IMG/VR virus record: IMGVR_UViG_3300029915_000016 | Span: 18,613 to 82,612 of that record | DNA from: a virus | Direction: 5' to 3' (one strand) | DNA: 64,000 bases | Shown here: positions 3,436 through 22,052 of the stretch, in pieces | Position numbering within the stretch: the stretch's first letter is position 1 | Layout of the letters: each line of letters begins with the position of its first letter | The notes under the pieces: generated by a model | The model's input: the letters and a program-made list of their open reading frames with translations, nothing else | What the model was told of the DNA's origin: nothing | The model's database searches: none | Translations under genes and position numbers: made by a program

Positions 3436-3657
3436 GTGCCGACAGAACACTTTAAAGACGAGGAATCATATCGTAAGAGTCGTGCATATACCCATATTCA
3501 CGGAATTCCTACTCGCGCCGTCGATGTAGTTGTTGGAGGAAAGAAACATAAGGTTAAGCATTCCAAGATCAAATCAGGAAAAGGTGCAAGCGGTAGAACT
3601 GGGAAGTATGTCGGAAAGAGGAAGACGAAGAAGAAAAAAGTGGCGTCAAAGCGTTGA
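3436..3657 (+). CDS. Small Lys-rich basic protein
   Basis: RBS AGGAGG; basic C-terminus. Confidence 0.6.
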   Translation: MPTEHFKDEESYRKSRAYTHIHGIPTRAVDVVVGGKKHKVKHSKIKSGKGASGRTGKYVGKRKTKKKKVASKR

Positions 3658-3730
3658 ACGTGGTAGAGTTTAAGAGATAAATGAGCAACCTGCCCTGACC
3701 TCATCCGGGAGATATTGAGGCCAATAAGCA

Positions 3731-3766
3731 ACGGCTCTGGCTGAGAGGCTAGGGCCTATTTCTTTT
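3731..3766 (+). terminator. Intrinsic terminator-like hairpin
   Basis: GGCTCTGGC/GCTAGGGCC stem + TATTTCTTTT. Confidence 0.45.
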
Positions 3767-3774
3767 GGAGTGAG

Positions 3775-3924
3775 ATGGTCAACGAGATCAACGCATCGAC
3801 TCAGGACTCAAGGGCGGGGAAGTCTCGTAGAAAAGTATCTCGTGCTGGTGTAGTAGACAAAGTGAAGAGTGAAAATCTGAAGAAACACGGAACCAAGAAA
3901 CGGTCTGTTCGGAAGAGGGTTTGA
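3775..3924 (+). CDS. Small basic protein, 49 aa (not in ORF track)
   Basis: GGAG RBS; MVNEINASTQ...KKRSVRKRV. Confidence 0.55.
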   Translation: MVNEINASTQDSRAGKSRRKVSRAGVVDKVKSENLKKHGTKKRSVRKRV

Positions 3925-3925
3925 T

Positions 3926-4216
3926 ATGTCAAAAGAGACATATGATCTCGTAAATACGGTCAAAGATGGATGGAAGACGGCGGCTGATTGGATGAGCGGT
4001 GGCCCAGTCAAAAGACTTTTCGATTCCAAGCCGAAAGGCGAACCGATTAAATTCGATGGCCCAAAAGAGAAAGAAGAACAACGGAAGGCAAACCAGAAGA
4101 CTACTCCAAAGCCAGCACCAGCAAAGAAAAAAGTAGGTGGTGGATCTCAATCTGGTACGCAGATTAAGACTGTCAAGAAGAGCGCACCAGCAAAGAAATA
4201 CGCAGCGAAGAGGTAA
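3926..4216 (+). CDS. Small Lys-rich basic protein
   Basis: Two APAKK motifs; tight packing. Confidence 0.6.
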   Translation: MSKETYDLVNTVKDGWKTAADWMSGGPVKRLFDSKPKGEPIKFDGPKEKEEQRKANQKTTPKPAPAKKKVGGGSQSGTQIKTVKKSAPAKKYAAKR

Positions 4217-4222
4217 AGGACA

Positions 4223-4510
4223 ATGGCGAAGAAGAAAAAGAATGTCGGTACGAGTGCAGCGCCCGCATCACCGTCTAGCTCTGGAAAGAGCCGAATCACT
4301 ACCGAAATCGAAAATGCAGAAAACGGTTTTGTAATCCGAGTGTGCAGTGATGGGCAAGGACCAGAAGGAAAGTATGAGAGCAAGAAATTCGTAGCTCCAG
4401 ATCACGCTTCCGCTCTCAGGATCGCAAACCAAGGGATGCTTGGAATGGGATTGAAGAGTGGAAAGAAAAAGAGAGCCAAAGGTAAAAGGTTGGTAAGCAA
4501 GAAGGCTTAA
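4223..4510 (+). CDS. Small basic protein
   Basis: RBS AAGGA; IENAENGF motif; basic termini. Confidence 0.6.
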   Translation: MAKKKKNVGTSAAPASPSSSGKSRITTEIENAENGFVIRVCSDGQGPEGKYESKKFVAPDHASALRIANQGMLGMGLKSGKKKRAKGKRLVSKKA

Positions 4511-4514
4511 GACT

Positions 4515-5867
4515 GTGGCAGGATCATATAGTTGGTTGACGTTTTTATCTGCTCGTCAACAGTTAGCCTCTCGCCTAGCTGATAGCGGGATGGTGTTCTG
4601 GACTGATAATGAGTTAAAGACCTATATCATTAAAGCACTTAGGATGTTCAACTGCATGACATTTACATTTAAGACTGATTTTTCATATAACCCCACAAAC
4701 CTATGGAACTCGCTAGGATCACTTACGGGGAGTCCTCGTCTTCGCACAGTCACCGATACGCAATCCTATATAAACATGGAGTACATGCTTTTGGAAAAAC
4801 CTTCTGGCGGGGTTTGGACGGGTACAACTCAGTTTGATATTGCGAGCATGAGCAGTGCGTTACAGCATCGTAGGGATGAGATGCTGCAAGTTTCTAACGC
4901 GAATCAATCTCTCATGCCGGGGATAGGATTAACACCGGGAACTAGACGTACAAATTTACCGGATACGGTTATAGACGTGGCAAGGATGAGGTATATCCCG
5001 GTAACTGGAAACCCTGCAACTCTCTATCGTGATGACTCGGTAGCGCAGGAGTTTTACGAGGCAGGATATTTGCAAGCGCCATCAGGAACGCCCCAAACGT
5101 ACATGGTATCGTCCGAACCTCCATTGTCGTTTGACGTGGATATTACACCAGATCAACCCGGAACCTATGAGGCTGTAGTATCACAATCAGGAACAGCGTT
5201 AAATCCTCCTACTGCTACTATATTAGGCATCCCCAACGACTACGCATGGGTAGCCGAGTATGGAGCCTTGGCAGATTTGCTAGGACGTGAATCAGAGGCG
5301 ACAGATAGGGAGAGATCGGCATACTGTTTGAAGCGTTATCAGGATGGTTTGAATCTTTTACTGCATACACCGTGGATTATGTTGGCAAACGTAAACGGAA
5401 TAGCGGTAAGCGTGGACTCGATCAAAGATATGGACAACTACAGTCCAGAGTGGGACTCAAACCCAACCGGATTTGGACCAGTGGTAGTGGCTGGAGGGAT
5501 TGATTTCATCGCAGCGCCCGTAGGATTGTCCATAGGTTTAACGGTTCTCGGTAACGCTCCAGTTCCAACACTTGATACGGATTATTTGCAAATTTCAAGA
5601 AGCGATGTCGATATAATTTACGATTTAGCGCAGTCGCTCGCGTGCTTCAAGCTCGGAGGGGCAGACTTTAAGTCTGCTCTCGAACTAGAATCAAGGGCAA
5701 TTCAGGCATGTGCAGCAGAGAATTCTCGCCTAAAATCGACAGGATCGTTCGCTGACATCATCATCCAGCGCGGTCAGGCACAAGATAGGAGTCAGAACAG
5801 GTACAACGACATTACGGATAGCAAGATACAAGCACTCCGTAAAACACATCCTGAGTATTTTCAGTAG
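4515..5867 (+). CDS. Putative head-tail adaptor/tail tubular protein A-like
   Basis: ARQQLASRL..FWTDNEL..YI N-terminus typical of adaptors; position before large tail gene. Confidence 0.5.
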   Translation: MAGSYSWLTFLSARQQLASRLADSGMVFWTDNELKTYIIKALRMFNCMTFTFKTDFSYNPTNLWNSLGSLTGSPRLRTVTDTQSYINMEYMLLEKPSGGVWTGTTQFDIASMSSALQHRRDEMLQVSNANQSLMPGIGLTPGTRRTNLPDTVIDVARMRYIPVTGNPATLYRDDSVAQEFYEAGYLQAPSGTPQTYMVSSEPPLSFDVDITPDQPGTYEAVVSQSGTALNPPTATILGIPNDYAWVAEYGALADLLGRESEATDRERSAYCLKRYQDGLNLLLHTPWIMLANVNGIAVSVDSIKDMDNYSPEWDSNPTGFGPVVVAGGIDFIAAPVGLSIGLTVLGNAPVPTLDTDYLQISRSDVDIIYDLAQSLACFKLGGADFKSALELESRAIQACAAENSRLKSTGSFADIIIQRGQAQDRSQNRYNDITDSKIQALRKTHPEYFQ

Positions 5868-5888
5868 TTGAGATTTTCTGGAGCACTA

Positions 5889-6026
5889 ATGGCGAAGATC
5901 AAAATTAGCGACAACAGGTGTAATCGTTGCGGAGCACATCAACTTGTGGCAACAACTCTTTGCCCTAAATGCGCTCAGAGTTTCCAACAAGAGGATAACG
6001 GAAAGCCGATCACGAAGAAGGAATAG
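5889..6026 (+). CDS. Small Zn-ribbon protein, 45 aa (not in ORF track)
   Basis: GGAG RBS; CNRC...CPKC; stop abuts next ATG. Confidence 0.55.
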   Translation: MAKIKISDNRCNRCGAHQLVATTLCPKCAQSFQQEDNGKPITKKE

Positions 6027-9000
6027 ATGGCTCTGAAATTCATAGGCGTCGATCTTACAAGTCCCCTCAACAGAATTCCTGCTGGTAGGACGAGTATAGC
6101 TCAAAATATCCGCGCTTATGCGCTTGGAGGAATATCTTTTCGTAATCTTCTCACGGCAGCGATAGAAACCCTTGGAGCAGCCGTTCATTCCCTAGCCAGG
6201 CTCAACGATTCTACCCCAAACGGACCTGTTTCAGGATACATAATCATTGGTGGAGCAGGAACAACTCTCTATGCAGGTTCTACAGCAATAGCAACCAGCA
6301 TGAGCGGTCATCCTCTATCGATGATTACATTTCGGCCTAATGCATCAGTTCAGCCATGGATGTATATTGGAGATTCTGCCCCTGCAAACACAGTAACTCT
6401 TCTCACAAAGTATCTTGGAGCTAACAGTTTTGGACCAGCAGGAACGCCTGTAAACTTTGTATCTAATGGATTAATGAAAGTTCGGTCGGATGGAATTGTT
6501 TACAAGACAGGTATCCGCGAGCCTCAACTTGCCCCTCTAGTCTCTACCGGAAATATTGTCACGAGCGCGACAGCAGTACCGCTTTCGGCAAAAACTATTC
6601 CGTGGACAAATGTTGGCGGGGCTAACTCGACAAATTACTCATACAATCAGACAAACCCATCAGACGGAACCCCTCCTTTTATTATCACTGGCGGAGGACC
6701 AGAGTTGGTTGCCGGATCAACTATACTTTTATCAGTAATAGCATCTCTGATAACCCCTCCAGTAGTGAACGGATCGGCACCCGGAGTAAGTCCAGCAACA
6801 CCTGGACCAACCGCAGGTTCACCGGGTCAGTTTGTCACATTCCCTACTCCGGGGTCGAGTTCGATCATAGTCGGAGCGTTTACTGATTCTAGCGGAAATA
6901 TCATCGCTCCGGGTGGACTGATTCCCATCGTCTTTTCAATTGGCACAGGAACATCTGTTACAGTTCCTACTGGTGCCTCACAATTGCATGTGGGGATCAA
7001 CTCGGTAGGATCAACGCCGTTAGGTTTTTCGTTCAATAATAACAGTGGAGACTTTCTTCTCGATTGGACGGTCACGATCAATCCTATTGCGGCGAACGTT
7101 GCCACGGTTGGGGACGTAACGGCTTATGTATGGGGATCTGTACCGGGAGGAATTGGTACAGGCGGAGGATCTCCACACTCGGGACCAGTGGCTCAATACA
7201 TCTGGAAGAACCCTGCTGATGGAGGTTCTGGCATTGTTCGAGGAATAACCAATCCAGTCCCCGACGTATCACCGACAAGCAATTCGTGGATATTTGACTC
7301 TACCCCTGAGAACGACACACTGCCTGTAAATTGGAGTGTATTGAATCCAGACGGTTCGGTTGCAAGCACGATCCCGCTTTTCACTCCCGCGCTGGAGCCG
7401 GAAGGAAACTATGCCGACTTCAATGTGTGCGTAGTTGGTAGCCTCTTCATTCCAGCGGCAGGGACGCACACATTCACGATTCAATACAAAGATCAGATAA
7501 TGTTCGGCATCGGTGGAGGGGCAACGCTTGTAGGGTCGTTCTCCAGCGGTCTTTTACGCGGCCAAACAATGACTGTAGTTCAAGCTCTGCCGCTTCTTTT
7601 TGGCGGAGTTATTGACGGTTCAGGATCGTTCCACACAGCAACTATCACAGTATCCTTTCCCGGTACTGGTCTGTACGACGTAGAGATTGACTGGGATTAC
7701 TGGTCCCACACTGGAAGGTCTCTCATTCTGACTTGCGATGGAGTTGTAATTCCTCCAATCTCTTCTAATATCCGCCAGAATGTTCAATACCGATATGTGT
7801 ACCGTAGCACAGCTACAGGAGCATTATCGAATCCATCTCCCGAATCAACAGCGCAATCTCTTCCGGTCATCGCAAATTCTGTATCATCTATATGGTCGAA
7901 TGACCCGCAGGTTGATGTAGTTGACTATTATCGACTTGATGAAAACACCACCAATTTCACTTATGTAGCAACAGGACCAAACGATAATCTTGGACCGGGT
8001 GGTACTAATACGCCGATTGTTGATCTGTTGACGGATTTGGAACTAGGAAACCAGTTGCTAGACTTTGACAACTTTGAGCCATTTCCATCTATAGATTTGC
8101 CTCAAAAGGGAACGGTTAGCATCTCTGGTGGAGTTATAACTTGGTTGACGGGTGGAGCGATTGGAGGGACTACTACTGGATTTAATGTACGTTGGTTGGC
8201 TGGTACGATAATCCTTATAGGATCACCAACATCACTGGCTTACATCCTCGTTGCAAGACCAACATCTACCACAAGCATGACGATTCCCGGAGTTCCAGAT
8301 GGAACCAATTTATCATATGAGATTCCAGAGCCTATCCTAGCCAATCAACCTCTGCCATATCAGTTTGGACCGACAGATAATATCAACTTCACTTTTGCGG
8401 TAGGAGACCCATTAAGGCCGGGGACTCTCTACTGGTGCAAAGGGTCTAATCTTGATTCCGCACCCGACACAAATCAATTAGAGGTAACCGATCCCGGAGA
8501 GACGTTAGTCAATGGTGCCATGAGCGGTGGACGGGGAGTTTTAGCGTCGATCAAGAGATTTTGGGTTATCATGCCTAACTTCTTTGATTTGACATCGACG
8601 GTAACAGGGACTCAAGGATCGACATGGACGCTACAAGAAACCAGCATTAATCGTGGTTTGTATATGCCACGGTGCTTGGCGGTTGAAGGAGGAGGAACGA
8701 TATTTTTCAGAGTGTCTGACGGTATCCACGCATCACCGGGAGGAGCCGCTTCGGTTTCCATTACCGATCAGGATTTGTATCCTTTATTTAGTCACGAGAA
8801 CGCAGACTCAGCGCCTAGTGTTCCTCAACCGATAACAAGGAATGGAGTAACCGTTTATCCACCAGACGACTCACAGCCACAAGGACAAAGATTCTCTGTA
8901 GTAAACGGTTTCCTTTACTATGATTACTTGGACGCCACCAGTACGCCAAGGACTCTAGTCTACGACATTAAGAATCACGGATGGGTATGGGATGTATATC

Positions 9001-11931: not shown

Positions 11932-13701
11932 ATGGCGCAAAATGCAGGAGGAGGACTTCTCGGCGGCTTATTGTTGGGGGTTGGAGAAGGGTATTTAGGA
12001 AGAAAAGAAGAGCAACATGCCCGTAAGCAGGGGATGAAGGCGCAAGAGTTTCAGGATAAGCATGATGAAATTCAAGGACAGATTGCCAACCTACAAACTA
12101 AACTTGCGTCAGTTCCCGAAGAGTCTAGGAATACTCCAGATTACCTAAAACTTCAAGACCAACTAGCCCAAGCCACTCAATCCCGTAACGAGCATTGGAA
12201 AAGCCTCGATCATCCTAACGCGATAATGAAGTTTGGGAAGATGCTTGGGAGAGACTTGAAGTTTGGGAATAAGAAGGATGATACGACTGTAGCTCCACCC
12301 GTTTACGGCCAGCCCACGATGGATATAGATGGGGAGAAAGTCCCGACAGGACCAGCGTACAAGGTTCAAGGACCACAGACTCCAGAACAAGTAAAAGCAC
12401 AGACTGAAGCGGGAAAGATGATTTCCGCTTTGCCTTTATCACCTGAGAGGCAAGCATTACAGGGAGTACAGACGGATGCATCTACAAAACTTGCATCGTT
12501 CAATGCATCGGTAAAGAACTTTCAAGCGATGAATCCTGATGCGACTCCTGAAGAGATTCAGTCATTCAGGAACGATCAAATCCAAAAGATGTACGTCATG
12601 ACCACGGCTGGAAATTGGGCGAATGTGAAGGGAAAGATGAATGGGCAGGATGTCACCCTTCTCTTTGACAAGAAGACTCATCAGTATCGTCTGCAAAACG
12701 GTGAGGCTGTACCTCAAGACATGCTTGCAACGTTTGTTCCTGAAACAAACACCACGGAATCGACTAGGACTCGTGCCGACTTCGCAGAGTATCAGAAACA
12801 GCATCCTGAATATAAGGGGACGTTTGAACAATGGAAGAATGAGCAGGCTGGAATAGGCAGAAATACGGCGGCTGCATCTAAACCTGAATCGTTTGACAAG
12901 CAGTACCAAGCTGTTCTTCTTAAAGAGGCGTCTGGTCAACCTCTTACCCCGGATGAGATTGCGCGTAAGGCCGCATGGCAGATTTGGAACAAGGAAACAA
13001 AAATCGATCCGGGTGTGGCGAGAATGGCAGCAGCAGGAGCCAATCGTTATATTATGGTCTACAATCCTGCCGATCCTGAAAACGTTATTCCTATGCGTGC
13101 TGGAGATGCTGCTAAAGCAGGATTTAGATCACCGCAGAGTATCGCATTCCAAACAGACAAGGCCATTACGCGTTACATGGTTGCTGGTCAAGGCGCGGTT
13201 AATATCAACTACTTCAATACTGCCACAGACCACTTGGAAATTCTTCGTCAAGCTGGAGAAGCGTTGAATAATGGGGATTACCCACTGTTCAATAAATACG
13301 CTAACAGCTTTGCAACTGCGACAGGAGCGCCTGCACCGACTAATTTTGATGCGGTAAAGAGCGCCGTGGCTGGTGAGTTGTCGAAGACGTTTAAGGGCAC
13401 AGGAGCAACAGATCAAGAAATCGCAGAGATCAACCAGACTATCAATAATGCTCAATCTCCACAGCAGATTCAAGGTGCAATTGAGTATTACACGAAACTG
13501 ATGGGAAGCAAGTTGAATGCATTGAAGGGGCAGTATGATGCTGGAAAGAGCGGAAGGCCAAACTTCCCCGGCGCATCTACTACGCCGCAAAGTGGAGGTG
13601 CAGGAGCAAAGCACAAGATCAAGATTGGGAACAAGTTTTACACCTACAACGGAACAGGAGACACGTCGGATATTAAGAGCTATACTGAGGTGCCAAAATA
13701 A
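11932..13701 (+). CDS. Putative ejection/internal virion protein
   Basis: Gly-rich N-terminus, coiled coil, helical body; follows tail genes. Confidence 0.55.
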   Translation: MAQNAGGGLLGGLLLGVGEGYLGRKEEQHARKQGMKAQEFQDKHDEIQGQIANLQTKLASVPEESRNTPDYLKLQDQLAQATQSRNEHWKSLDHPNAIMKFGKMLGRDLKFGNKKDDTTVAPPVYGQPTMDIDGEKVPTGPAYKVQGPQTPEQVKAQTEAGKMISALPLSPERQALQGVQTDASTKLASFNASVKNFQAMNPDATPEEIQSFRNDQIQKMYVMTTAGNWANVKGKMNGQDVTLLFDKKTHQYRLQNGEAVPQDMLATFVPETNTTESTRTRADFAEYQKQHPEYKGTFEQWKNEQAGIGRNTAAASKPESFDKQYQAVLLKEASGQPLTPDEIARKAAWQIWNKETKIDPGVARMAAAGANRYIMVYNPADPENVIPMRAGDAAKAGFRSPQSIAFQTDKAITRYMVAGQGAVNINYFNTATDHLEILRQAGEALNNGDYPLFNKYANSFATATGAPAPTNFDAVKSAVAGELSKTFKGTGATDQEIAEINQTINNAQSPQQIQGAIEYYTKLMGSKLNALKGQYDAGKSGRPNFPGASTTPQSGGAGAKHKIKIGNKFYTYNGTGDTSDIKSYTEVPK

Positions 13702-16124
13702 TGGCTCCCAAAAAGATGAAACTCCCTCCCGGTGCTGAGTTGGTCGATGATTCTTCGTCTATGAAGTTACCTGCTGGAGCGGAATTAGTTACAGACGAAG
13801 ATAGCTCTCAAACTCCCACCGAAGACACCACCGAGTTCGCATTCAAGCCGGGTGACCAACACGGAAAATACAGGATGAAGAGTCCTTCCGGTAAGGATAT
13901 TGACGTTGGTTACGAGAACGTGATGAATGCTTCCAAAAAAGGATACAAAATTCATCCAGACGACAGGGAAGTTTACGCAAATGATTATGTAGCAGATTTA
14001 CAGAAAAAAGCGAAAACAAGTGGACGCAAAGGATCGGAGTTTATCAATAAGCCGGTTGCCCAGCACATGCTTAACCCGGATACCGATCTACCACAATCAT
14101 ACGACGTGGTGAAGGCTGGACCTGAGAAGTGGAGTTTGGATTGGGTTAAGCAGAAAGCGAACAATTTAACGAGCCCACACGCGATATTGGACCAGCTTCC
14201 TACCGCTGGTAGCATCGCTGGTGGTGCTGCTGGCGCTACTGCTGGCGCTACGACTAGCCCGATAACTGGACCAGTTGGACCAATCGTCGGAAGGGTAGCA
14301 GGAGCGGGGGTAGGGGCAGGAGTGGGAGAGTCTGCTAGGCAGAAATTGGAGACAGTTGTATACCCATACGAGCATAGGCCAAGCGCGGAGGAGAATAAGA
14401 GACGGATTGCGATAGAGGCTGGTATGGGAGCAGCAGCGGAGGGTGCTGGATTAGGAGGGTCTAAAAGTATTGGTATCGCTGTTAAACCTCTACAGGAAAC
14501 CGCTCTTGCATCTGAAAAAGCAGGGGTTAATTTATTGCCATCAGAGGCGGCAGGAAAAGCACCTAGTTTCGTTGAGAGATTTATGAAAGGCTCCGTTCTT
14601 ACAAGCGGAAAGATGGAAAAGTTTCGTCAAACTCAAAACGCTGAGACGAAAGCGGTAGTAGAGAAAGTGGCAAATGATATATCAAAATTCAATGGAACCC
14701 CTGAAGAACTTGGTAATTTAGTTCAAGATGGAATTGAAAATCACAAAAAAGGTTTCCGCGTAATCCAGAATCAGATGTACGACGACATCGCCACAGATGT
14801 AAACGAGAGAACTATCAAGGTTCCGGTACAAACTCAGGTTCAATCGAAGGTATTGGATGCCCACGGCAAGCCAGTGATGACCACGGTTACAAAATTGGAA
14901 GATAGAGTTGTCGATGACGTTATGCCTTCCATGAAATCGTTGAAGGATTATGCGAAAGAAAAAATGGCAGATTTAGAACTAAAAAAAGACTTACTACCTA
15001 AGAAAGACCTAGAAGATTCCGAAGAATTGTTTAAGAAAATAATCAATTCTCCAGACAATGTACCGTTTAGAGTTGTAAAGGATATACGTAGTGATTATTT
15101 GGAAATATCCAGAAAACTAGACGAAGCATTGTCTACAAAGGCTGGAGGATTTGCGAAACACATGTCTGGTCTCTTCGATGAGTCCATGATGGATGCTGCT
15201 GAGAAAAGTGGGATACAAGGACTGCCAGAGAAGATTCGTGCGGCCAACGCTTTCACTGCGAACGAACACAAGATGTTTGAGCAGGCTCTCGTTGAGAAGA
15301 TAGTCAAGACGAAGAAGCCAGAAGCTATTGCTACGTTAATTCGTAATCCGAATATAGGGAATCAAGAGACACGTGATCTATTCGCAGTCCTTCCAAAACA
15401 ACTACATCAACCTGTCCAACGACAGATCATTATGGACACCATGCGGCAGTCTGTAAACTTAAACACCAAAGCGTTCAACGAGCGCAGGTTTGCAGAAACC
15501 ATAGCTAAAATAGGAGACGAAAGAGGACAGATAATATTTGGACCTAACTGGAAGAATGTAAAAGAGCTAACTGGAATTATGGAGAGGATCAACGGCCCTG
15601 TAGGAATAGGAGCCAGCGGTGGAGCATCGTTGCAGAACTTTGCGCTACTCAAGAATGCTATGTTGCTGGCAATTCCGGGAGGAGAGGCAGCAAGAGGACA
15701 GTATGGAAGTGCGGCGGCATCTCTAGTAGGAGAATGGGCGTCACTTAACTTATTAGCGTCAGCGATGACTCATCCTGCAACGGCTGTAAAGATGTTGAAA
15801 GTAGCTCAAGGGTTCGCTCGCACTCTACCCTACGCAGGGTATGTTCTAGGAAACGTAGGTCGTGGTGAGGAAATAGGAAAGGGAGAGACTCCAGACGAGA
15901 GACGGTTGGATGCAGTTAAACAGAAAGCGAAGGACTTGCAAGATAAGATGAGTCCTACGCCTGCCCCTGTCGCTCAACCTGCCGTGCAGCCAGTCGTTCC
16001 AGCACCCGTAGCCGTGCCTCAAATGCTGTACGATGAGGATGGTAATCCTGTTGGTCCACAATCTTCTAATCAAGGACACACGCATATATGGGACGCAAAG
16101 ACACAATCCATAGTGCCTGTATAA
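13701..16124 (+). CDS. Putative ejection/internal virion protein
   Basis: Duplicated MKLP.GAELV; Gly-zipper membrane segments. Confidence 0.55.
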   Translation: MAPKKMKLPPGAELVDDSSSMKLPAGAELVTDEDSSQTPTEDTTEFAFKPGDQHGKYRMKSPSGKDIDVGYENVMNASKKGYKIHPDDREVYANDYVADLQKKAKTSGRKGSEFINKPVAQHMLNPDTDLPQSYDVVKAGPEKWSLDWVKQKANNLTSPHAILDQLPTAGSIAGGAAGATAGATTSPITGPVGPIVGRVAGAGVGAGVGESARQKLETVVYPYEHRPSAEENKRRIAIEAGMGAAAEGAGLGGSKSIGIAVKPLQETALASEKAGVNLLPSEAAGKAPSFVERFMKGSVLTSGKMEKFRQTQNAETKAVVEKVANDISKFNGTPEELGNLVQDGIENHKKGFRVIQNQMYDDIATDVNERTIKVPVQTQVQSKVLDAHGKPVMTTVTKLEDRVVDDVMPSMKSLKDYAKEKMADLELKKDLLPKKDLEDSEELFKKIINSPDNVPFRVVKDIRSDYLEISRKLDEALSTKAGGFAKHMSGLFDESMMDAAEKSGIQGLPEKIRAANAFTANEHKMFEQALVEKIVKTKKPEAIATLIRNPNIGNQETRDLFAVLPKQLHQPVQRQIIMDTMRQSVNLNTKAFNERRFAETIAKIGDERGQIIFGPNWKNVKELTGIMERINGPVGIGASGGASLQNFALLKNAMLLAIPGGEAARGQYGSAAASLVGEWASLNLLASAMTHPATAVKMLKVAQGFARTLPYAGYVLGNVGRGEEIGKGETPDERRLDAVKQKAKDLQDKMSPTPAPVAQPAVQPVVPAPVAVPQMLYDEDGNPVGPQSSNQGHTHIWDAKTQSIVPV

Positions 16125-16142
16125 AATATTTCTTGTTAACTC

Positions 16143-16170
16143 TTGACAATAGTAACCATAGGTATATACT
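16143..16170 (+). promoter_or_regulatory. Sigma70-type promoter of the Zn-finger/RAMP/array cassette
   Basis: TTGACA-N16-TATACT; ATG 6 nt after the -10. Confidence 0.7.
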
Positions 16171-16176
16171 TAAAGT

Positions 16177-16320
16177 ATGCCACAGCGAATAGAAAAAAGG
16201 ACAATCTGGGTCTGTAGCCGGTGCAAGCACGAATGGGAGAGCAAAGACGGGCAGAAGCCTGTATGCTGCGCCAAGTGCAAATCTCCGTATTGGGACAGAG
16301 AACCTAAATCTGACCGCTAA
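16177..16320 (+). CDS. Small C4 Zn-finger protein, 47 aa, probably leaderless (not in ORF track)
   Basis: MPQRIEKRTIWVCSRCKHEW...CAKCKSPYW. Confidence 0.7.
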   Translation: MPQRIEKRTIWVCSRCKHEWESKDGQKPVCCAKCKSPYWDREPKSDR

Positions 16321-16343
16321 TCCAATGGCATACGAGGCAGTAA

Positions 16344-16964
16344 ATGGATGCGAAAGTAACCGCTTTGAGTGGTGTGTCTAACGATGCGCAGTTGGACATT
16401 GAAATTCAAACCCCATACATGGTTGAGGCGACAATCGAAGGAACGGCACCGATTCTATTTCATCGCTGGTCGTGTGATGCAGTTGAGGAAAAGTCGAAGG
16501 CGGCAAAAGGTTCAGCGGCCAAGAAGACAGATAATGTTGAGTCATACTTATACAGGGACGAAAAAGGAGAAGTGTCGATTCCAGCAGAATACTTCCGGCA
16601 ATCTGTTATTTCTGCCGCTAAGTTCAAGCAAGATCCTCGCTCCCCGCGCAAGTCGGCTATGGACTTATTTAAGGCTGGAATTGCAACACTCGGAGAACTC
16701 TGCTCTTTCGGGTTAAAAGAACCTGATTATATGGATCGTCGCAGGGTGGTAATTCAACGAAGTGCAATCACTCGTGTTCGGCCTGCGATGGCGATAGGAT
16801 GGAAATGCACTGTTGGTTTCCAGATTCTTCTTCCCGAATACATCAATCCTGCGCTGATGAATGATACTCTTCAATACGCTGGACGGATTGTAGGAGTAGG
16901 GGATTTTCGCCCGTCATTTGGTCGCTATCAAGTGACAGGATTTAACGTGATAAGATTAAATTAG
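16344..16964 (+). CDS. Stand-alone RAMP (Cas7/Csm3-like) protein; candidate VIPR-type effector
   Basis: IEGTAPILFH strand, IPAEYFRQSV helix and C-terminal Gly-rich loop GVGDFRPSFGRY; no other cas genes; pentamer array follows the stop. Confidence 0.75.
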   Translation: MDAKVTALSGVSNDAQLDIEIQTPYMVEATIEGTAPILFHRWSCDAVEEKSKAAKGSAAKKTDNVESYLYRDEKGEVSIPAEYFRQSVISAAKFKQDPRSPRKSAMDLFKAGIATLGELCSFGLKEPDYMDRRRVVIQRSAITRVRPAMAIGWKCTVGFQILLPEYINPALMNDTLQYAGRIVGVGDFRPSFGRYQVTGFNVIRLN

Positions 16965-16965
16965 C

Positions 16966-17090
16966 ATGGCTTGGCTTGGTTCGGCGGGGCATGGCTCGGT
17001 CTGGTGGGCTAAGGCGAGGCAAGGCATGGCCCGGTAAGGTCCGGCTCGGCACGGCTTGGAACGGCAAGGCGTGGTAAGGCATGGTAGAGC
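16966..17090 (+). ncRNA. NN-GGY pentamer array, 25 units; candidate guide RNA
   Basis: Strict 5-nt period; 22 of 25 units end in GGC/GGT; variable dinucleotides. Confidence 0.8.
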
Positions 17091-17117
17091 GGCGAACTTA
17101 GGTTCGCCGTTTCTTTT
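17089..17117 (+). terminator. Intrinsic terminator closing the array
   Basis: GCGGCGAAC-TTAG-GTTCGCCGT + TTCTTTT. Confidence 0.8.
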
Positions 17118-17137
17118 ATTTGAGGTATAATCTCGGT

Positions 17138-19771
17138 ATGCCTGATTCTAAGAAAACCACGAAAATTGTTCAGGTTAAAGGATTGGGGACCATATCTTTT
17201 CCGTCCGACATGGACGATGAGCATATCTCTCAGCAGATCATGTCGCATCTGAAGAAGAAGAAAACATCTCCCATCACAACAGAGGAGAGCGAGCACGCAC
17301 GGCAACTGAAGCCTGCGCAGCCGTTGAGCACGGCGATACCTAAGATGCCTGAGTGGGCTAACAAGCCTATACTCTCAGGTCTGACGGTTGATGCACAGAT
17401 TGAGAGAGCAGAGAAAGGTGGTCACCAAAAAGATGCAGATTGGTTAAGGAAACAGAAGGCTCTACAAGATAAGGCTTACGAGAAGAACAAAGAGAAATAT
17501 CCTATCGCCACAGGAGTAACCACGGGCGTAGGAGAATTCGCTGATAGTATGACGAGTCCTGCAAATCTGGCTTTGATTGTAGGATCTCCACAATCCAAAC
17601 TACTCAGTGCTTTCTTCTCTATCCAAGCTCTCAAAGGCTCATACCAGAACGCGAAGCAGGCTCAGGATGCATACGACAAAGGAAACAACCAAGAAGCTAT
17701 AAAGTACGCCACAGAAGCGGGTCTAGGGATCGGATTGGCCTACGGAGCAGGAAAACATGCAGTCAAGGATCTTCCTGTACCGGCTCCTGTACGGAACTTT
17801 ATGGAGAACGAGGAAGGAAGTCTTACCTACAAAGCATCCGATAAATCTCAGCCATTCTTTTTGAAGTCAGAGAAGATACTGAATGACAAGGTTCGGGGTC
17901 CAATGCCGGGTGAGGACATTCACAAGATGCTTTTGGCGAACGGCGTAGGACCGGAAGAGATGAAGTGGACTGGCTTGGATGACATGTTGAAGGGGAAGGG
18001 AAAAGAGAAAGTAACCCCTGCCGACATTCAGAAGCATATTGCAGAGAATGATATACAGATTAAGGAAGTGACAAAAGGAGACAATAGTGAAGAAGAAGCG
18101 TTAAGGAATGAATATTATCGTCTTGGAAATGCTCGTCAAGCTGCGTATAAGAAAGCAGAAGCGTCTGGAGATAAAGCGGATTATGAAGAATCTATACGAC
18201 TAGGACAACAAGAGAGCGAAGCACATAATAGATGGAACGAATACCGCGATAAACCGCGTGAATCAACTAAATTCGCAGGATACACTCTTCCCGGAGGCAG
18301 TAACTACCGGGAGATGCTGTTGACGATGCCTCAAGACAAATTTATGCCTTCGTTTGATGAATGGTCTAGAGCAAACGGATATGGAGACCATGAAGGATCT
18401 AGAAATCTATACGAAAAAATAAGGAATGGAGAGTCTCCAGATACCACTGGGAATTCCAACCAATTCCGTTCCTCTCACTGGGAAGAACCCAACGTACTAG
18501 GACACGTCCGCTTTAATGACCGTACTGGTCCTAATGGGGAGAAGATACTGCACGTCGAAGAGTTGCAGAGCGATTGGCATCAGAAAGGTAGATCGGAAGG
18601 GTATCGTCTTCCCGTATCTGAAACATCGAAGATGGACTCGGAATATCGTGCATTAGTTCACAAGAACGCAGATTCCAGAGCTAATGGAGGAACTCCTAAT
18701 CCGGCAGATGTTGCCAGAGCGAAGGAACTTGAGGAGCATTTAATAAGATCAGATAAATCAAAGATGCCCGATGCTCCATTTAAGAAGGAATGGCCAGAGC
18801 TTCTATTCAAGCGTATGCTCCGGTACGCGGCAGAGAACGGCTATGACGGCATTAGCTGGACGCCGGGAGAAGAGCAGGCGTCACGATACGACTTGTCGAA
18901 GCAGATCAGCCGAATTGAATATAAAAAAGGAATGAAGTATAACCACACCGACCCTCAGAAGTGGACGATCAACGCTTTTGATCTTGACGGTAATGGTGTG
19001 ATGAAACAATTCGTCACAGGTGATGAACTACCAAATATTGTTGGGAAAGAGGTAGCCGCAAAGATTATAGGCGATAAGGAAGACCAAGGAGAACTTTCCG
19101 GTCTCGATCTCAAGGTTGGCGGGGAAGGAATGAAGGGATTTTACGACAAGATCGTACCCGACATAGCCAACAAGCTAGGAAAGAAGTGGGGAACGAAGGT
19201 TGGAGAGACGAAGATACCAGTACAAGGAGATTTTGAATACAAATACAGTGGACCAGAAAGGACAATGGACGATGTAAACACTCTCTTGTCCGTAGCTCAG
19301 GGGAGAGGAAACACGAAGATTTCTCCGATCACTGGCAAGCCTATGATGTTTGTTGCGGAACGTGTGGATGTTGAAAACGGTCTGCAAAGAATAAAGAGAG
19401 AGATGAAGCAAGGCAAGACTTTCTCTCAAGCAATGGGAATAACAGGAACCCCTGAATTAGCAGAATGGTTTGGCGGAGAGGTAAAGGAAGCAGCTAACAT
19501 CAACCAGAAGCCAGTACCCTACATGCCTATCACTCCAGAGATGCGTAAGGGAGTGAAGGGGGAGCAGCACAGCCTATTCGGATCAGGAACGGCACCGACA
19601 CTATCTGATGTGAAGGCGAAAGCAGAAAAGTTGAATCCTAAGCAGATCAAAGAGTCCGTTGCTCACTCTCAGTCAAACGGAGTGAAAGTTACCGATCCGA
19701 ACGGACACATCCATACATTTCCTGACGAGCAGAGCGCGTCAAGGTTTAAGATGGCAGCAGGTATACAGTAG
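17138..19771 (+). CDS. Large virion-associated polyvalent-type protein
   Basis: EELQSDWHQKGR, APFKK and YAAENGYDGISW motifs seen in large phage injected proteins; TATAAT at 17126 suggests a leaderless ATG 17138. Confidence 0.55.
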   Translation: MPDSKKTTKIVQVKGLGTISFPSDMDDEHISQQIMSHLKKKKTSPITTEESEHARQLKPAQPLSTAIPKMPEWANKPILSGLTVDAQIERAEKGGHQKDADWLRKQKALQDKAYEKNKEKYPIATGVTTGVGEFADSMTSPANLALIVGSPQSKLLSAFFSIQALKGSYQNAKQAQDAYDKGNNQEAIKYATEAGLGIGLAYGAGKHAVKDLPVPAPVRNFMENEEGSLTYKASDKSQPFFLKSEKILNDKVRGPMPGEDIHKMLLANGVGPEEMKWTGLDDMLKGKGKEKVTPADIQKHIAENDIQIKEVTKGDNSEEEALRNEYYRLGNARQAAYKKAEASGDKADYEESIRLGQQESEAHNRWNEYRDKPRESTKFAGYTLPGGSNYREMLLTMPQDKFMPSFDEWSRANGYGDHEGSRNLYEKIRNGESPDTTGNSNQFRSSHWEEPNVLGHVRFNDRTGPNGEKILHVEELQSDWHQKGRSEGYRLPVSETSKMDSEYRALVHKNADSRANGGTPNPADVARAKELEEHLIRSDKSKMPDAPFKKEWPELLFKRMLRYAAENGYDGISWTPGEEQASRYDLSKQISRIEYKKGMKYNHTDPQKWTINAFDLDGNGVMKQFVTGDELPNIVGKEVAAKIIGDKEDQGELSGLDLKVGGEGMKGFYDKIVPDIANKLGKKWGTKVGETKIPVQGDFEYKYSGPERTMDDVNTLLSVAQGRGNTKISPITGKPMMFVAERVDVENGLQRIKREMKQGKTFSQAMGITGTPELAEWFGGEVKEAANINQKPVPYMPITPEMRKGVKGEQHSLFGSGTAPTLSDVKAKAEKLNPKQIKESVAHSQSNGVKVTDPNGHIHTFPDEQSASRFKMAAGIQ

Positions 19772-20911: not shown

Positions 20912-21132
20912 TTGAGCTAATTGAAGGTCAGTGGTTCAACCCGTATGAGATTGTATCGGTAAAGTCAATCAGCAAGGATAAATGTGTTTTATGGACGACA
21001 GGACAACCATCGACAGAAGGACACGTATTAGAATTTCCTGCCGAAGAAGTCGTCCAAGCAATTGAGGATGCAATAGAAGAGATCGAGAGCGAAGAAGTAG
21101 ACGACGAAGACGCCGATCAGAACGAAGAATGA
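20908..21132 (+). CDS. Small acidic hypothetical protein
   Basis: 4-nt overlaps on both sides. Confidence 0.55.
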   Translation: MIELIEGQWFNPYEIVSVKSISKDKCVLWTTGQPSTEGHVLEFPAEEVVQAIEDAIEEIESEEVDDEDADQNEE

Positions 21133-22052
21133 CAAGTCCATTCCTTTTATCTCACATAGAGCATTGCATACGTGACGGTTTCTGGACCCGCGATTGGAAA
21201 CGCTGGAAACTTGAGCCTAACGAGATGATCCAGCGTGGCCTATTGGCTGGACTAACCTCACCGCGACAGGATTACGGAGTAGTATGCGGTGAAGAGATCA
21301 TGGGTCTTGGTTCAGAACCGGGATTAGAGACCAAAGAACACAACTTATACGATCAAATAGTTCACTTAGCGGCACTCGCAGACATCGTATGCTCGGCCAT
21401 CCGTAAGCCCACCGAGGGCCCGTGGCTGCGCCCTGAGCCTGTTACGTTGGCGGAAGGATCAACGTGGCGATCAGGAGCCTATATGTCTCCAGATGGTCGT
21501 TTCTTGAGACGCATCGTCCTAGCGTCGGCGTGGAACGATGACCGTCACTACTCAGAGGCTCGTAGCTGGTATACATTGGGAGAAGTCTGTGCCTACGATC
21601 TTCCAATGCAGCAAGCCGTTATCATCCTTGGCCAACACCGGGAAGGAAAGCGACACGGCTACTGGTCGAAGGGACTCAGGCACCCGGTCAACAAAAAATT
21701 GCGATTCAGGAAGCGCAACGATGTGTCAACCGGGTTCAAGAGTTCATGGAACTCTGTATGGCGCGAGGATTATGACGAGATTACCACGAAAGAGTGGCTC
21801 GACGCCATGTATGAAGATGGGGTTTTACAGGACGTAGCATTCAACGTCGATATTCCTGTCCCTGTCAAGGAAGTTAGGAAGAAGATCGTAGACTTGGCGG
21901 CTAGGAAACTGGAAGAGATTGAAGAGATGAAAGAAATTCCAGATATGCAATTATCAACATGTTCATGGCCTGTGAAGTGCCAGTTTATCAGACCGTGCCA
22001 TAATTTCGAGACGCCCAATGGAAGGTATGGATTTGTTAATATCAATACCTGA
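21129..22052 (+). CDS. Degenerate PD-(D/E)XK/Cas4-like nuclease
   Basis: C-terminal CSWPVKCQFIRPC cluster; catalytic motif not clear. Confidence 0.45.
   Translation: MTSPFLLSHIEHCIRDGFWTRDWKRWKLEPNEMIQRGLLAGLTSPRQDYGVVCGEEIMGLGSEPGLETKEHNLYDQIVHLAALADIVCSAIRKPTEGPWLRPEPVTLAEGSTWRSGAYMSPDGRFLRRIVLASAWNDDRHYSEARSWYTLGEVCAYDLPMQQAVIILGQHREGKRHGYWSKGLRHPVNKKLRFRKRNDVSTGFKSSWNSVWREDYDEITTKEWLDAMYEDGVLQDVAFNVDIPVPVKEVRKKIVDLAARKLEEIEEMKEIPDMQLSTCSWPVKCQFIRPCHNFETPNGRYGFVNINT

Follow-up and report, generated by a model that had tools for sequence, protein, structure and literature searches.

A predicted VIPR cassette in an uncultured peat phage and a possible target of its guide

The DNA studied here (the window) is a stretch of 64,000 nucleotides (nt), corresponding to bases 18613-82612 of a single phage contig of 82,612 bp (IMG/VR record IMGVR_UViG_3300029915_000016; G000) that was recovered in at least 20 peat metagenome samples. 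Coordinates given below refer to the window unless stated otherwise. The gene content of the contig is phage-like and includes genes for an SU10-adaptor-like protein and a GH108 endolysin, as well as several very large open reading frames (ORFs). At 16143-17118 the window contains a compact cassette that is located between an 807-aa ORF (13701-16124) and an 877-aa ORF (17138-19771), and that almost certainly belongs to VIPR, a class of RNA-guided systems first described in April 2026 (bioRxiv 10.64898/2026.04.26.720920; further preprints.720927 and 2026.10.15.759431). In VIPR, a phage-borne minimal RAMP protein places one subunit on each GGY/NN repeat of a guide RNA, such that the GGY is hidden and the NN is presented; double-stranded DNA is recognised in an NNx reading ("1-nt skip"), by which satellites, prophages and rival VIPR loci are silenced (10.64898/2026.04.26.720920,.720927). 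The class itself has thus been published in three 2026 preprints, and the present locus is a confirmation and not a discovery; what is new is the reading of the target of its guide and the matches of related guides to neighbouring alleles.

The cassette and its setting

The following features make up the cassette and its downstream neighbour.

16143-16170, plus strand: sigma-70-like promoter, TTGACA-16-TATACT (11/12 matches)
16177-16320, plus strand: 47-aa zinc-ribbon ORF with CxxC...CxxC; weak zinc-ribbon Pfam matches
16344-16964, plus strand: vipr, encoding a 206-aa single-RRM RAMP protein of the Vipr family; profile match to PDB 36pp_D, phrog_4652 and a Cas7/Csm3-like model
16965-17089, plus strand: predicted guide region of the guide RNA (vrRNA), with 24 in-register YNNGG units (48 guide bases) and 1 degenerate unit
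17087-17118, plus strand: predicted 3' tail of the vrRNA, a GC-rich hairpin with a 4-nt loop (hairpin proper 17087-17112) followed by a U-run
17138-19771, plus strand: downstream 877-aa gene, whose relatives carry PF18760 and a conserved N-terminal motif

An earlier reading based on the letters of the window alone (the original prediction) had described a promoter-to-terminator cassette dropped between virion genes, with a zinc finger of 47 aa and no CRISPR array, cas1 or nuclease adjacent to it. All the parts that it described were recovered, including the zinc finger, for which the support from Pfam is weak. The virion nature of the surroundings is plausible in view of the SU10-adaptor-like protein and the GH108 endolysin encoded upstream, although the annotation of the flanking genes is weak. 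As to the third claim, neither CRISPR nor cas matches were obtained: no PADLOC model was matched by the six neighbourhood proteins scanned (Vipr, the zinc ribbon and four flanking proteins), no cas family was found among the neighbouring proteins with Pfam, PHROGs or NCBIfam, and Rfam returned neither CRISPR-DR nor any other family over 15900-17400. The combination that defines membership of class 1 CRISPR-Cas, a CRISPR array and further cas genes near a Cas7 gene, was not found at the locus.

In the relatives L083 and L084 nothing separates the homologues of the flanking 807-aa and 877-aa genes, and the cassette is therefore an insertion of ∼1 kb. Its closest relative, present in locus L003, is likewise composed of a promoter, a zinc ribbon, vipr (85% identity at the protein level), 28 units and a hairpin. 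The promoter stretch 16143-16176 is 79% identical in L003, whereas the sequence immediately upstream is only 44% identical, and outside the promoter and the hairpin the L003 sequence is unrelated to this locus. Judged from these alignments, the cassette is a mobile insertion. The gap between the -10 box and the ATG of the zinc-ribbon ORF (16177) is 6 nt, and this first ORF of the cassette may be translated from a leaderless mRNA. A perfect TATAAT is found 6 nt 5' of the ATG of the 877-aa gene, just past the cassette terminator (17126-17140).

The Vipr protein and the pentamer array

The 206-aa protein, which ends in GVGDFRPSFGRY, gave no match in Pfam, NCBIfam or PADLOC and matched phrog_4652 (unknown function) with E=5e-18. 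Used as a single sequence it matched chain D of PDB entry 36pp, "SUSP1 Vipr protein", with E=3e-4 via its C-terminal glycine loop. When a profile of 30 homologues (alignment A1; 62-100% identity) was used, the match to 36pp_D reached E=2.6e-9, covered residues 27-199 against residues 4-189 of 202, and was the sole match in the PDB. According to the cryo-electron microscopy VIPR preprint, residues H17, R138, D177, W178, R179 and K33 of SUSP1 Vipr hold G1, G2, Y3 and the target backbone. In the HMMER alignment, from which the mapping was read off, H40, K55, R146, D187, F188 and R189 align with SUSP1 H17, K33, R138, D177, W178 and R179, respectively. These six residues are invariant across the 30 sequences of A1, and the replacement of W178 by F188 keeps the aromatic character. 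An AlphaFold (AF2) model (predicted local distance difference test, pLDDT, 77; predicted template modelling score, pTM, 0.73) displays a beta-alpha-beta-beta-alpha-beta RRM core, a beta-hairpin "thumb" at 134-149 and a Gly loop at 183-194. Foldseek searches with this model returned Cas7-group proteins only, with type VII Cas7, Csm3 and Cas7-11 on top and 119 matches at E<=0.001. The family comprises 6,820 proteins at E<=0.001, nearly all of them metagenomic. On the strength of these homologies, the 206-aa protein is Vipr.

The array begins directly after the vipr stop codon. It consists of 24 YNNGG units in a single register (16965-17084), two of which are imperfect (TGGGC and AACGG), and of the degenerate unit 17085-17089 that runs into the hairpin. 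A vrRNA comprises at least four tandem YNNGG units that adjoin vipr and share its strand, as is the case here. The array is the only one of its type on either strand of the 82,612-bp genome, and none appeared in 20 genome shuffles. Comparison with L003 at the nucleotide level gave identities of 84% for the zinc-ribbon ORF, 72% for vipr, 94% for the GG, 54% for the Y and 21% for the NN positions, the last value being the random level. Arrays with other NN, almost always on the same strand, adjoin the gene in 72 of 82 homologous loci, namely 80 IMG/VR loci found with a Vipr profile and the two GenBank phages DSL-LC04 and LESphi2. In contigs from four peat samples the sequence of the array was identical. 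The hairpin is kept in L003 and in another related locus, L008, and according to RNAalifold 4 of its pairs are kept through changes on both sides, the clearest cases being one stem position with AU/UA/GC and a second with UA/CG. Together with the U-run, the hairpin probably caps the guide and also serves as an intrinsic terminator.

Among the NN pairs of the guide, CA, CG, TA and TG are missing. This was considered as a rule of the system and rejected: these dinucleotides constitute 21% of the NN in the arrays of relatives, and their absence is therefore a property of this particular guide. The target peptide that the guide implies contains no Cys, Trp, Tyr, His, Gln or CGN-Arg codon. Some relatives have very long arrays (L049:965-2903, L063:2698-4149 and L058:2233-2955), with 37-71 consecutive GGYNN units and hundreds per locus, in contrast to the single guide of 24 units of the present cassette.

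Together, the sequence-level features of VIPR found at this locus are the homology to Vipr, the contact residues, the array, kept GG with variable NN, a structured tail and the 1-nt-skip outliers described below; we consider it likely that they reflect a functional VIPR system on a mobile cassette of ∼1 kb in an uncultured peat phage. The original prediction had come close to this. Its RAMP reading, including the C-terminal Gly loop, agrees with the core, thumb and loop of the model, and the comparison with Cas7/Csm3 that it had proposed as a check returned the Cas7 group alone. Its 125-nt GGY/NN array proved to be unique in the genome, and the expected arrays with different NN accompany homologues at the frequency given above. 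The fit to VIPR that it had suggested is borne out by the homology to the solved SUSP1 protein, and the mechanism that it inferred (one subunit per GGY, displayed NN, non-contiguous recognition and silencing of a competitor) agrees with what is in print.

Two readings in which the locus would not be a working VIPR system were weighed against these data. In one of them Vipr is a decaying or inactive relic next to a degenerating repeat tract, as might be supposed from the three units that depart from GGY and from the lack of conservation of the zinc-ribbon partner in the clade. All RNA-contact residues are intact and invariant however, and the promoter, Shine-Dalgarno sequence, ORF and terminator are intact as well; the array does not vary between peat samples, and internal degeneracy of vrRNAs is called frequent in the VIPR preprint. 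This makes a relic very improbable. The other reading, in which the tract is a coding or slippage repeat and the protein a stray CRISPR Cas7, could appeal to a 33-aa ORF that crosses the tract. A period of 5 is incompatible with coding though, and the series of NN does not repeat itself: all that Tandem Repeats Finder (TRF) gave were weak rows of period 10 or 15 that cover short stretches of the tract. In addition, homologues are accompanied by such a tract with other NN, and no cas genes or CRISPR matches lie nearby. We regard the chance of this reading being correct as negligible.

Judged from the homology to the SUSP1 system, which has been studied by experiment, a single transcript would start at the promoter at 16143, run through the zinc-ribbon ORF, vipr and array, and end at the hairpin. 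One Vipr protomer would then occupy each GGY, with H40 and D187 holding G1, R146 and F188 holding G2, and R189 contacting Y3. The resulting filament of ∼24 subunits would display 48 NN bases, pair with double-stranded DNA in an NNxNNx reading over 71 bp, and block transcription. The locus is a clean minimal natural example of such a system, in which a single promoter, protein, long guide and terminator fit into ∼1 kb.

Matches of the guide to the neighbouring gene

Real VIPR targets are matched in frame, with the skipped bases at wobble positions, and a target is called in the preprints when the match is at least 80%; no self-target at or above this value was found there. For vrRNA- and vipr-targeting guides the October preprint (2026.10.15.759431) reports that self scores are lower than rival scores, which avoids autoimmunity. 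To score the present guide, its 24 NN pairs were joined by one wildcard each (1-nt skip, NNx) and run against the genome. Two sites are of importance for what follows.

17156-17226, minus strand: partial match of the guide in its own genome, over codons 7-30 of the 877-aa gene (33/48, 1-nt-skip rule)
21594-21676, plus strand: site in ORF 21129-22052 matched by the guide of L003 (36/56, in frame)

The first site was the only outlier of the guide in its own 82.6-kb genome. It matched at 33/48 (69%), the next best score being 26, and none of 1500 shuffles of the unit order reached 33 (maximum 31). Other spacings did not produce it: skip 0 gave 29, skip 2 gave 27, and skip 3 found the array itself, followed by 26. 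The site starts 38 nt beyond the terminator of the cassette, and each base that the guide skips is the third of its codon. Within the guide, units 9-20 match at 20/24 (83%); overall, the own 877-aa allele differs at 15/48 of the positions read. When the guide is read as codons it spells approximately LVKV-D/E-GLG..SFPSDMPD..I, a variant of the N-terminal motif of the family to which the 877-aa protein belongs. The independent homologue in L083, another phage, also contained a single outlier, with 34/48 at the same site and 24 as the next best score. The best matches of this guide therefore amount to 69-71%. The possibility that the array holds two guides split at the imperfect unit 9 was discarded, since at the own site as well as at the L083 site the register of the match continues unbroken through unit 9 and the match extends to both ends.

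We propose, with a probability of roughly 55-60%, that the guide would be aimed at the alleles that rival phages have of the neighbouring 877-aa gene, within its first 30 codons. The own allele probably escapes its own guide, because a match of 69% falls below the 80% of the preprints. The peat runs X17, X18 and X20, which hold this phage, also contain contigs that are 12-19% divergent over 16212-16426 (zinc ribbon and start of vipr) and over 17351-17518 (a conserved stretch within the 877-aa gene), the latter with loose ends that run upstream. The phage therefore shares its habitat with related phages and with related VIPR cassettes.

Relatives of the cassette provided further evidence. The L003 cassette is located directly upstream of a gene for a 311-aa protein that is 50% identical to the product of ORF 21129-22052 of the present phage. 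When the 28-unit guide of L003 was scored against the present genome, the only outlier was the second site listed above, with 30 as the next best score and none of 1000 shuffles reaching 36. Its best match in its own locus was 30/56, at the codon that is exactly homologous in the protein alignment. In L006 and L008 the cassette is inserted between homologues of the ORFs 3588-3983 and 4498-6441 (whole-contig coordinates), and the 13-unit array of L008 (L008:2589-2653, minus strand) adjoins the homologue of ORF 3588-3983. This array matched the present phage at 22/26 (85%) at genome position 3693-3730, ∼14.9 kb before the start of the window, in frame and with the wobble bases skipped; the next best score was 18, and 22 was reached by 0/1000 shuffles. 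On its own allele the array scored 19/26, at the same offset. Going by the published threshold of 80%, the present phage is the predicted target of the VIPR system of its relative L008. For these three guides of the clade, only skip 1 gave outliers beyond all shuffles, and all of these were in frame with the wobble bases skipped.

The proximity of guide and matched gene was also seen in a larger sample. The 80 loci contain 91 arrays of at least 12 units. Of the 19 self-locus matches with the highest significance, 12 were no more than 700 nt away from the array, where 4.2 would be expected, and so were all of the top five (1.1 expected). Guides of this clade tend to resemble, imperfectly, an adjoining gene, and such imperfect resemblance fits guides directed against rival alleles, from which the linked own allele has diverged.

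Several results weigh against rival alleles of the 877-aa gene as the target. Exact-seed NNx scans of viral, metagenome and genome contig collections yielded no target of at least 80%: in the viral contigs units 9-18 gave 0 matches, units 14-21 gave 77 that were all random (<=31/48), and a relaxed pattern for codons 14-24 gave 0; in the metagenome contigs units 8-16 gave 28, again all random (<=30/48); and in the genome contigs two relaxed NNx patterns gave 0. The best candidate at the protein level is P0148, a metagenomic fragment of 94 aa, for which at most ∼40/48 can be estimated from the protein alone. The guide is also longer, with 24 units, than the 9-16 units known for the vrRNAs of SUSP1 and P. 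fulva. The 69% self-match with its 83% core could itself be functional. Finally, the enrichment of matches near arrays was noticed post hoc and concerns one Vipr clade.

Two other explanations of the match to the neighbouring gene were considered. The guide might be self-regulatory, binding the own 877-aa gene at 17156-17226 and throttling or timing its transcription. The own site is indeed the single outlier in the genome, and it exceeds 80% if only the core of units 9-20 counts. This 12-unit core was picked after the data had been seen however, the full guide remains below the threshold of the preprints, and the preprints report no self-target that reaches it. In addition, the foreign L083 homologue matches slightly better than the own allele (34/48 versus 33/48), and the guides of L003 and L008 match their own alleles worse than those of the present phage. 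Self-regulation is disfavoured by these comparisons with foreign and own alleles, and we consider it quite unlikely. Somewhat less unlikely, though still doubtful, is that the real target lies outside the databases searched, in a satellite, an unrelated phage or a gene of the host for instance, and that the match to the neighbour does not signal present targeting but is a trace of how or where the guide originated, e.g. by being written from flanking DNA or carried by recombination. This would account for the outcome of the contig scans, and the recurrent partial matches beside arrays in the clade could equally reflect guide origin. Against it, the matches are in frame with the wobble skipped, as they are for proven targets, the score of the L008 guide on the allele of the present phage is that of a bona fide target, and the peat samples with this phage also hold divergent relatives of the 877-aa gene. 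For these reasons we prefer rival alleles of the 877-aa gene as the target of the guide.

If guides against rival alleles are a general property of the clade, its cassettes might be selfish, homing-like modules that insert beside a gene, carry a guide against the rival alleles of that gene, and are linked to an own allele that has diverged to immunity. We put this forward tentatively, and it may well be wrong; it was suggested by the three cassettes at three insertion sites and by the enrichment of partial self-matches near arrays. If true, the cassette would silence cassette-free rivals in mixed infections and spread with the immune allele by recombination, as an RNA-guided counterpart of marker exclusion by free-standing homing endonucleases. 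Neither targeting of a neighbouring gene nor homing-like behaviour is described in the main texts of the three preprints on VIPR. Should the neighbour-allele pattern hold, it would explain how VIPR targets are chosen and how VIPR spreads among related phages, and ordinary genes of the virion module of sister phages would join the known targets, which are satellites, prophage regulators and rival VIPR loci.

Relatives of the 877-aa gene were sought in several ways. A single-sequence search of viral contigs found none, and an alignment search found 4 loci, of which only L083 has a GLG-type N-terminus. No match was obtained when the N-terminal 60 aa of the 877-aa protein were compared with longer proteins in a word-index search, and P0148 used as a query for loci gave no usable match. 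The N-terminal motif of the 877-aa protein, approximately KLVKV.GLG...FP..M.D..I (17138-17230; P0121-P0152), also heads proteins with quite different bodies, namely proteins that carry PF18760 and one of 1414 aa that has methyltransferase and HATPase domains. Large virion proteins may have this motif in common as a signal for packaging or ejection.

Comparison with known systems

The system with the solved structure is the type II VIPR of phage SUSP1 (Vipr, vap1 and four vrRNAs; PDB 36pp). Both loci are phage-borne, lack cas genes, and combine a homologous Vipr, with the same GGY- and DNA-contact residues, with a GGY/NN pentamer guide that has a structured 3' tail. In both, the 1-nt-skip rule picks in-frame, wobble-skipping sites, and the own site scores below rival sites. 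The differences are nevertheless considerable. Identity between the proteins is only ∼20-25%; a single 24-unit guide follows the vipr stop codon here, whereas SUSP1 has one guide upstream and three downstream, of 9-16 units; the tail is a simple hairpin-terminator instead of a pseudoknot; and the 47-aa zinc ribbon is located upstream in place of vap1. The predicted target here is a virion-module gene of a rival phage, and that of SUSP1 is a satellite recombinase.

Like VIPR, the Cas7-group RAMPs (type VII Cas7, Csm3 and Cas7-11) polymerise on a guide RNA and flip bases periodically, and they share with the present protein the RRM core, the thumb hairpin and the C-terminal glycine loop. Identity to them is however only 8-15%, and the locus has no CRISPR array or other cas genes. 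Moreover, the period of VIPR is 5 nt with three bases sequestered, whereas that of Cas7 is 6 nt with one base flipped, and VIPR, as published, targets double-stranded DNA.

Free-standing homing endonucleases of T4-like phages, which cause "intronless homing" and marker exclusion, are mobile genes located beside a gene whose rival allele they attack, the linked own allele being resistant. The attack considered here would be RNA-guided silencing and not cleavage, and the likeness is an analogy only.

The zinc-ribbon ORF has no counterpart among the vap classes named in the main text of the preprint (winged helix, helix-turn-helix, HNH and helicase). VIPR loci "typically" carry a vap gene according to the VIPR preprint, and a vap is thus not strictly defining. 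The best zinc-ribbon match in Pfam had E=4.8e-4, below the curated cut-off. In L003 the ORF occupies the same position and is 85% identical; otherwise, among the 82 loci, a zinc ribbon was found only in L012, ∼2 kb upstream of vipr. A role as a clade-wide accessory gene was rejected on the ground that L003 alone has it in the same position, and we regard the zinc ribbon as a candidate accessory protein limited to a sub-lineage.

Both GenBank phages belong to the same family and have same-strand GGYNN arrays beside the gene: phage DSL-LC04 (L001, OR003939; 3703-4609), with 59% identity, and P. aeruginosa LESphi2 (L002, OQ594955; 2413-3414), with 27%. They differ from the present cassette in having three arrays each, located upstream of the gene, in having a further ORF that overlaps the vipr stop codon, and in lacking a zinc ribbon. 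Their VIPR loci are unannotated in GenBank, where Vipr of DSL-LC04 goes under the name "helix-turn-helix transcriptional regulator". The VIPR locus of LESphi2, the P. aeruginosa LES prophage, adjoins the cI/cro switch.

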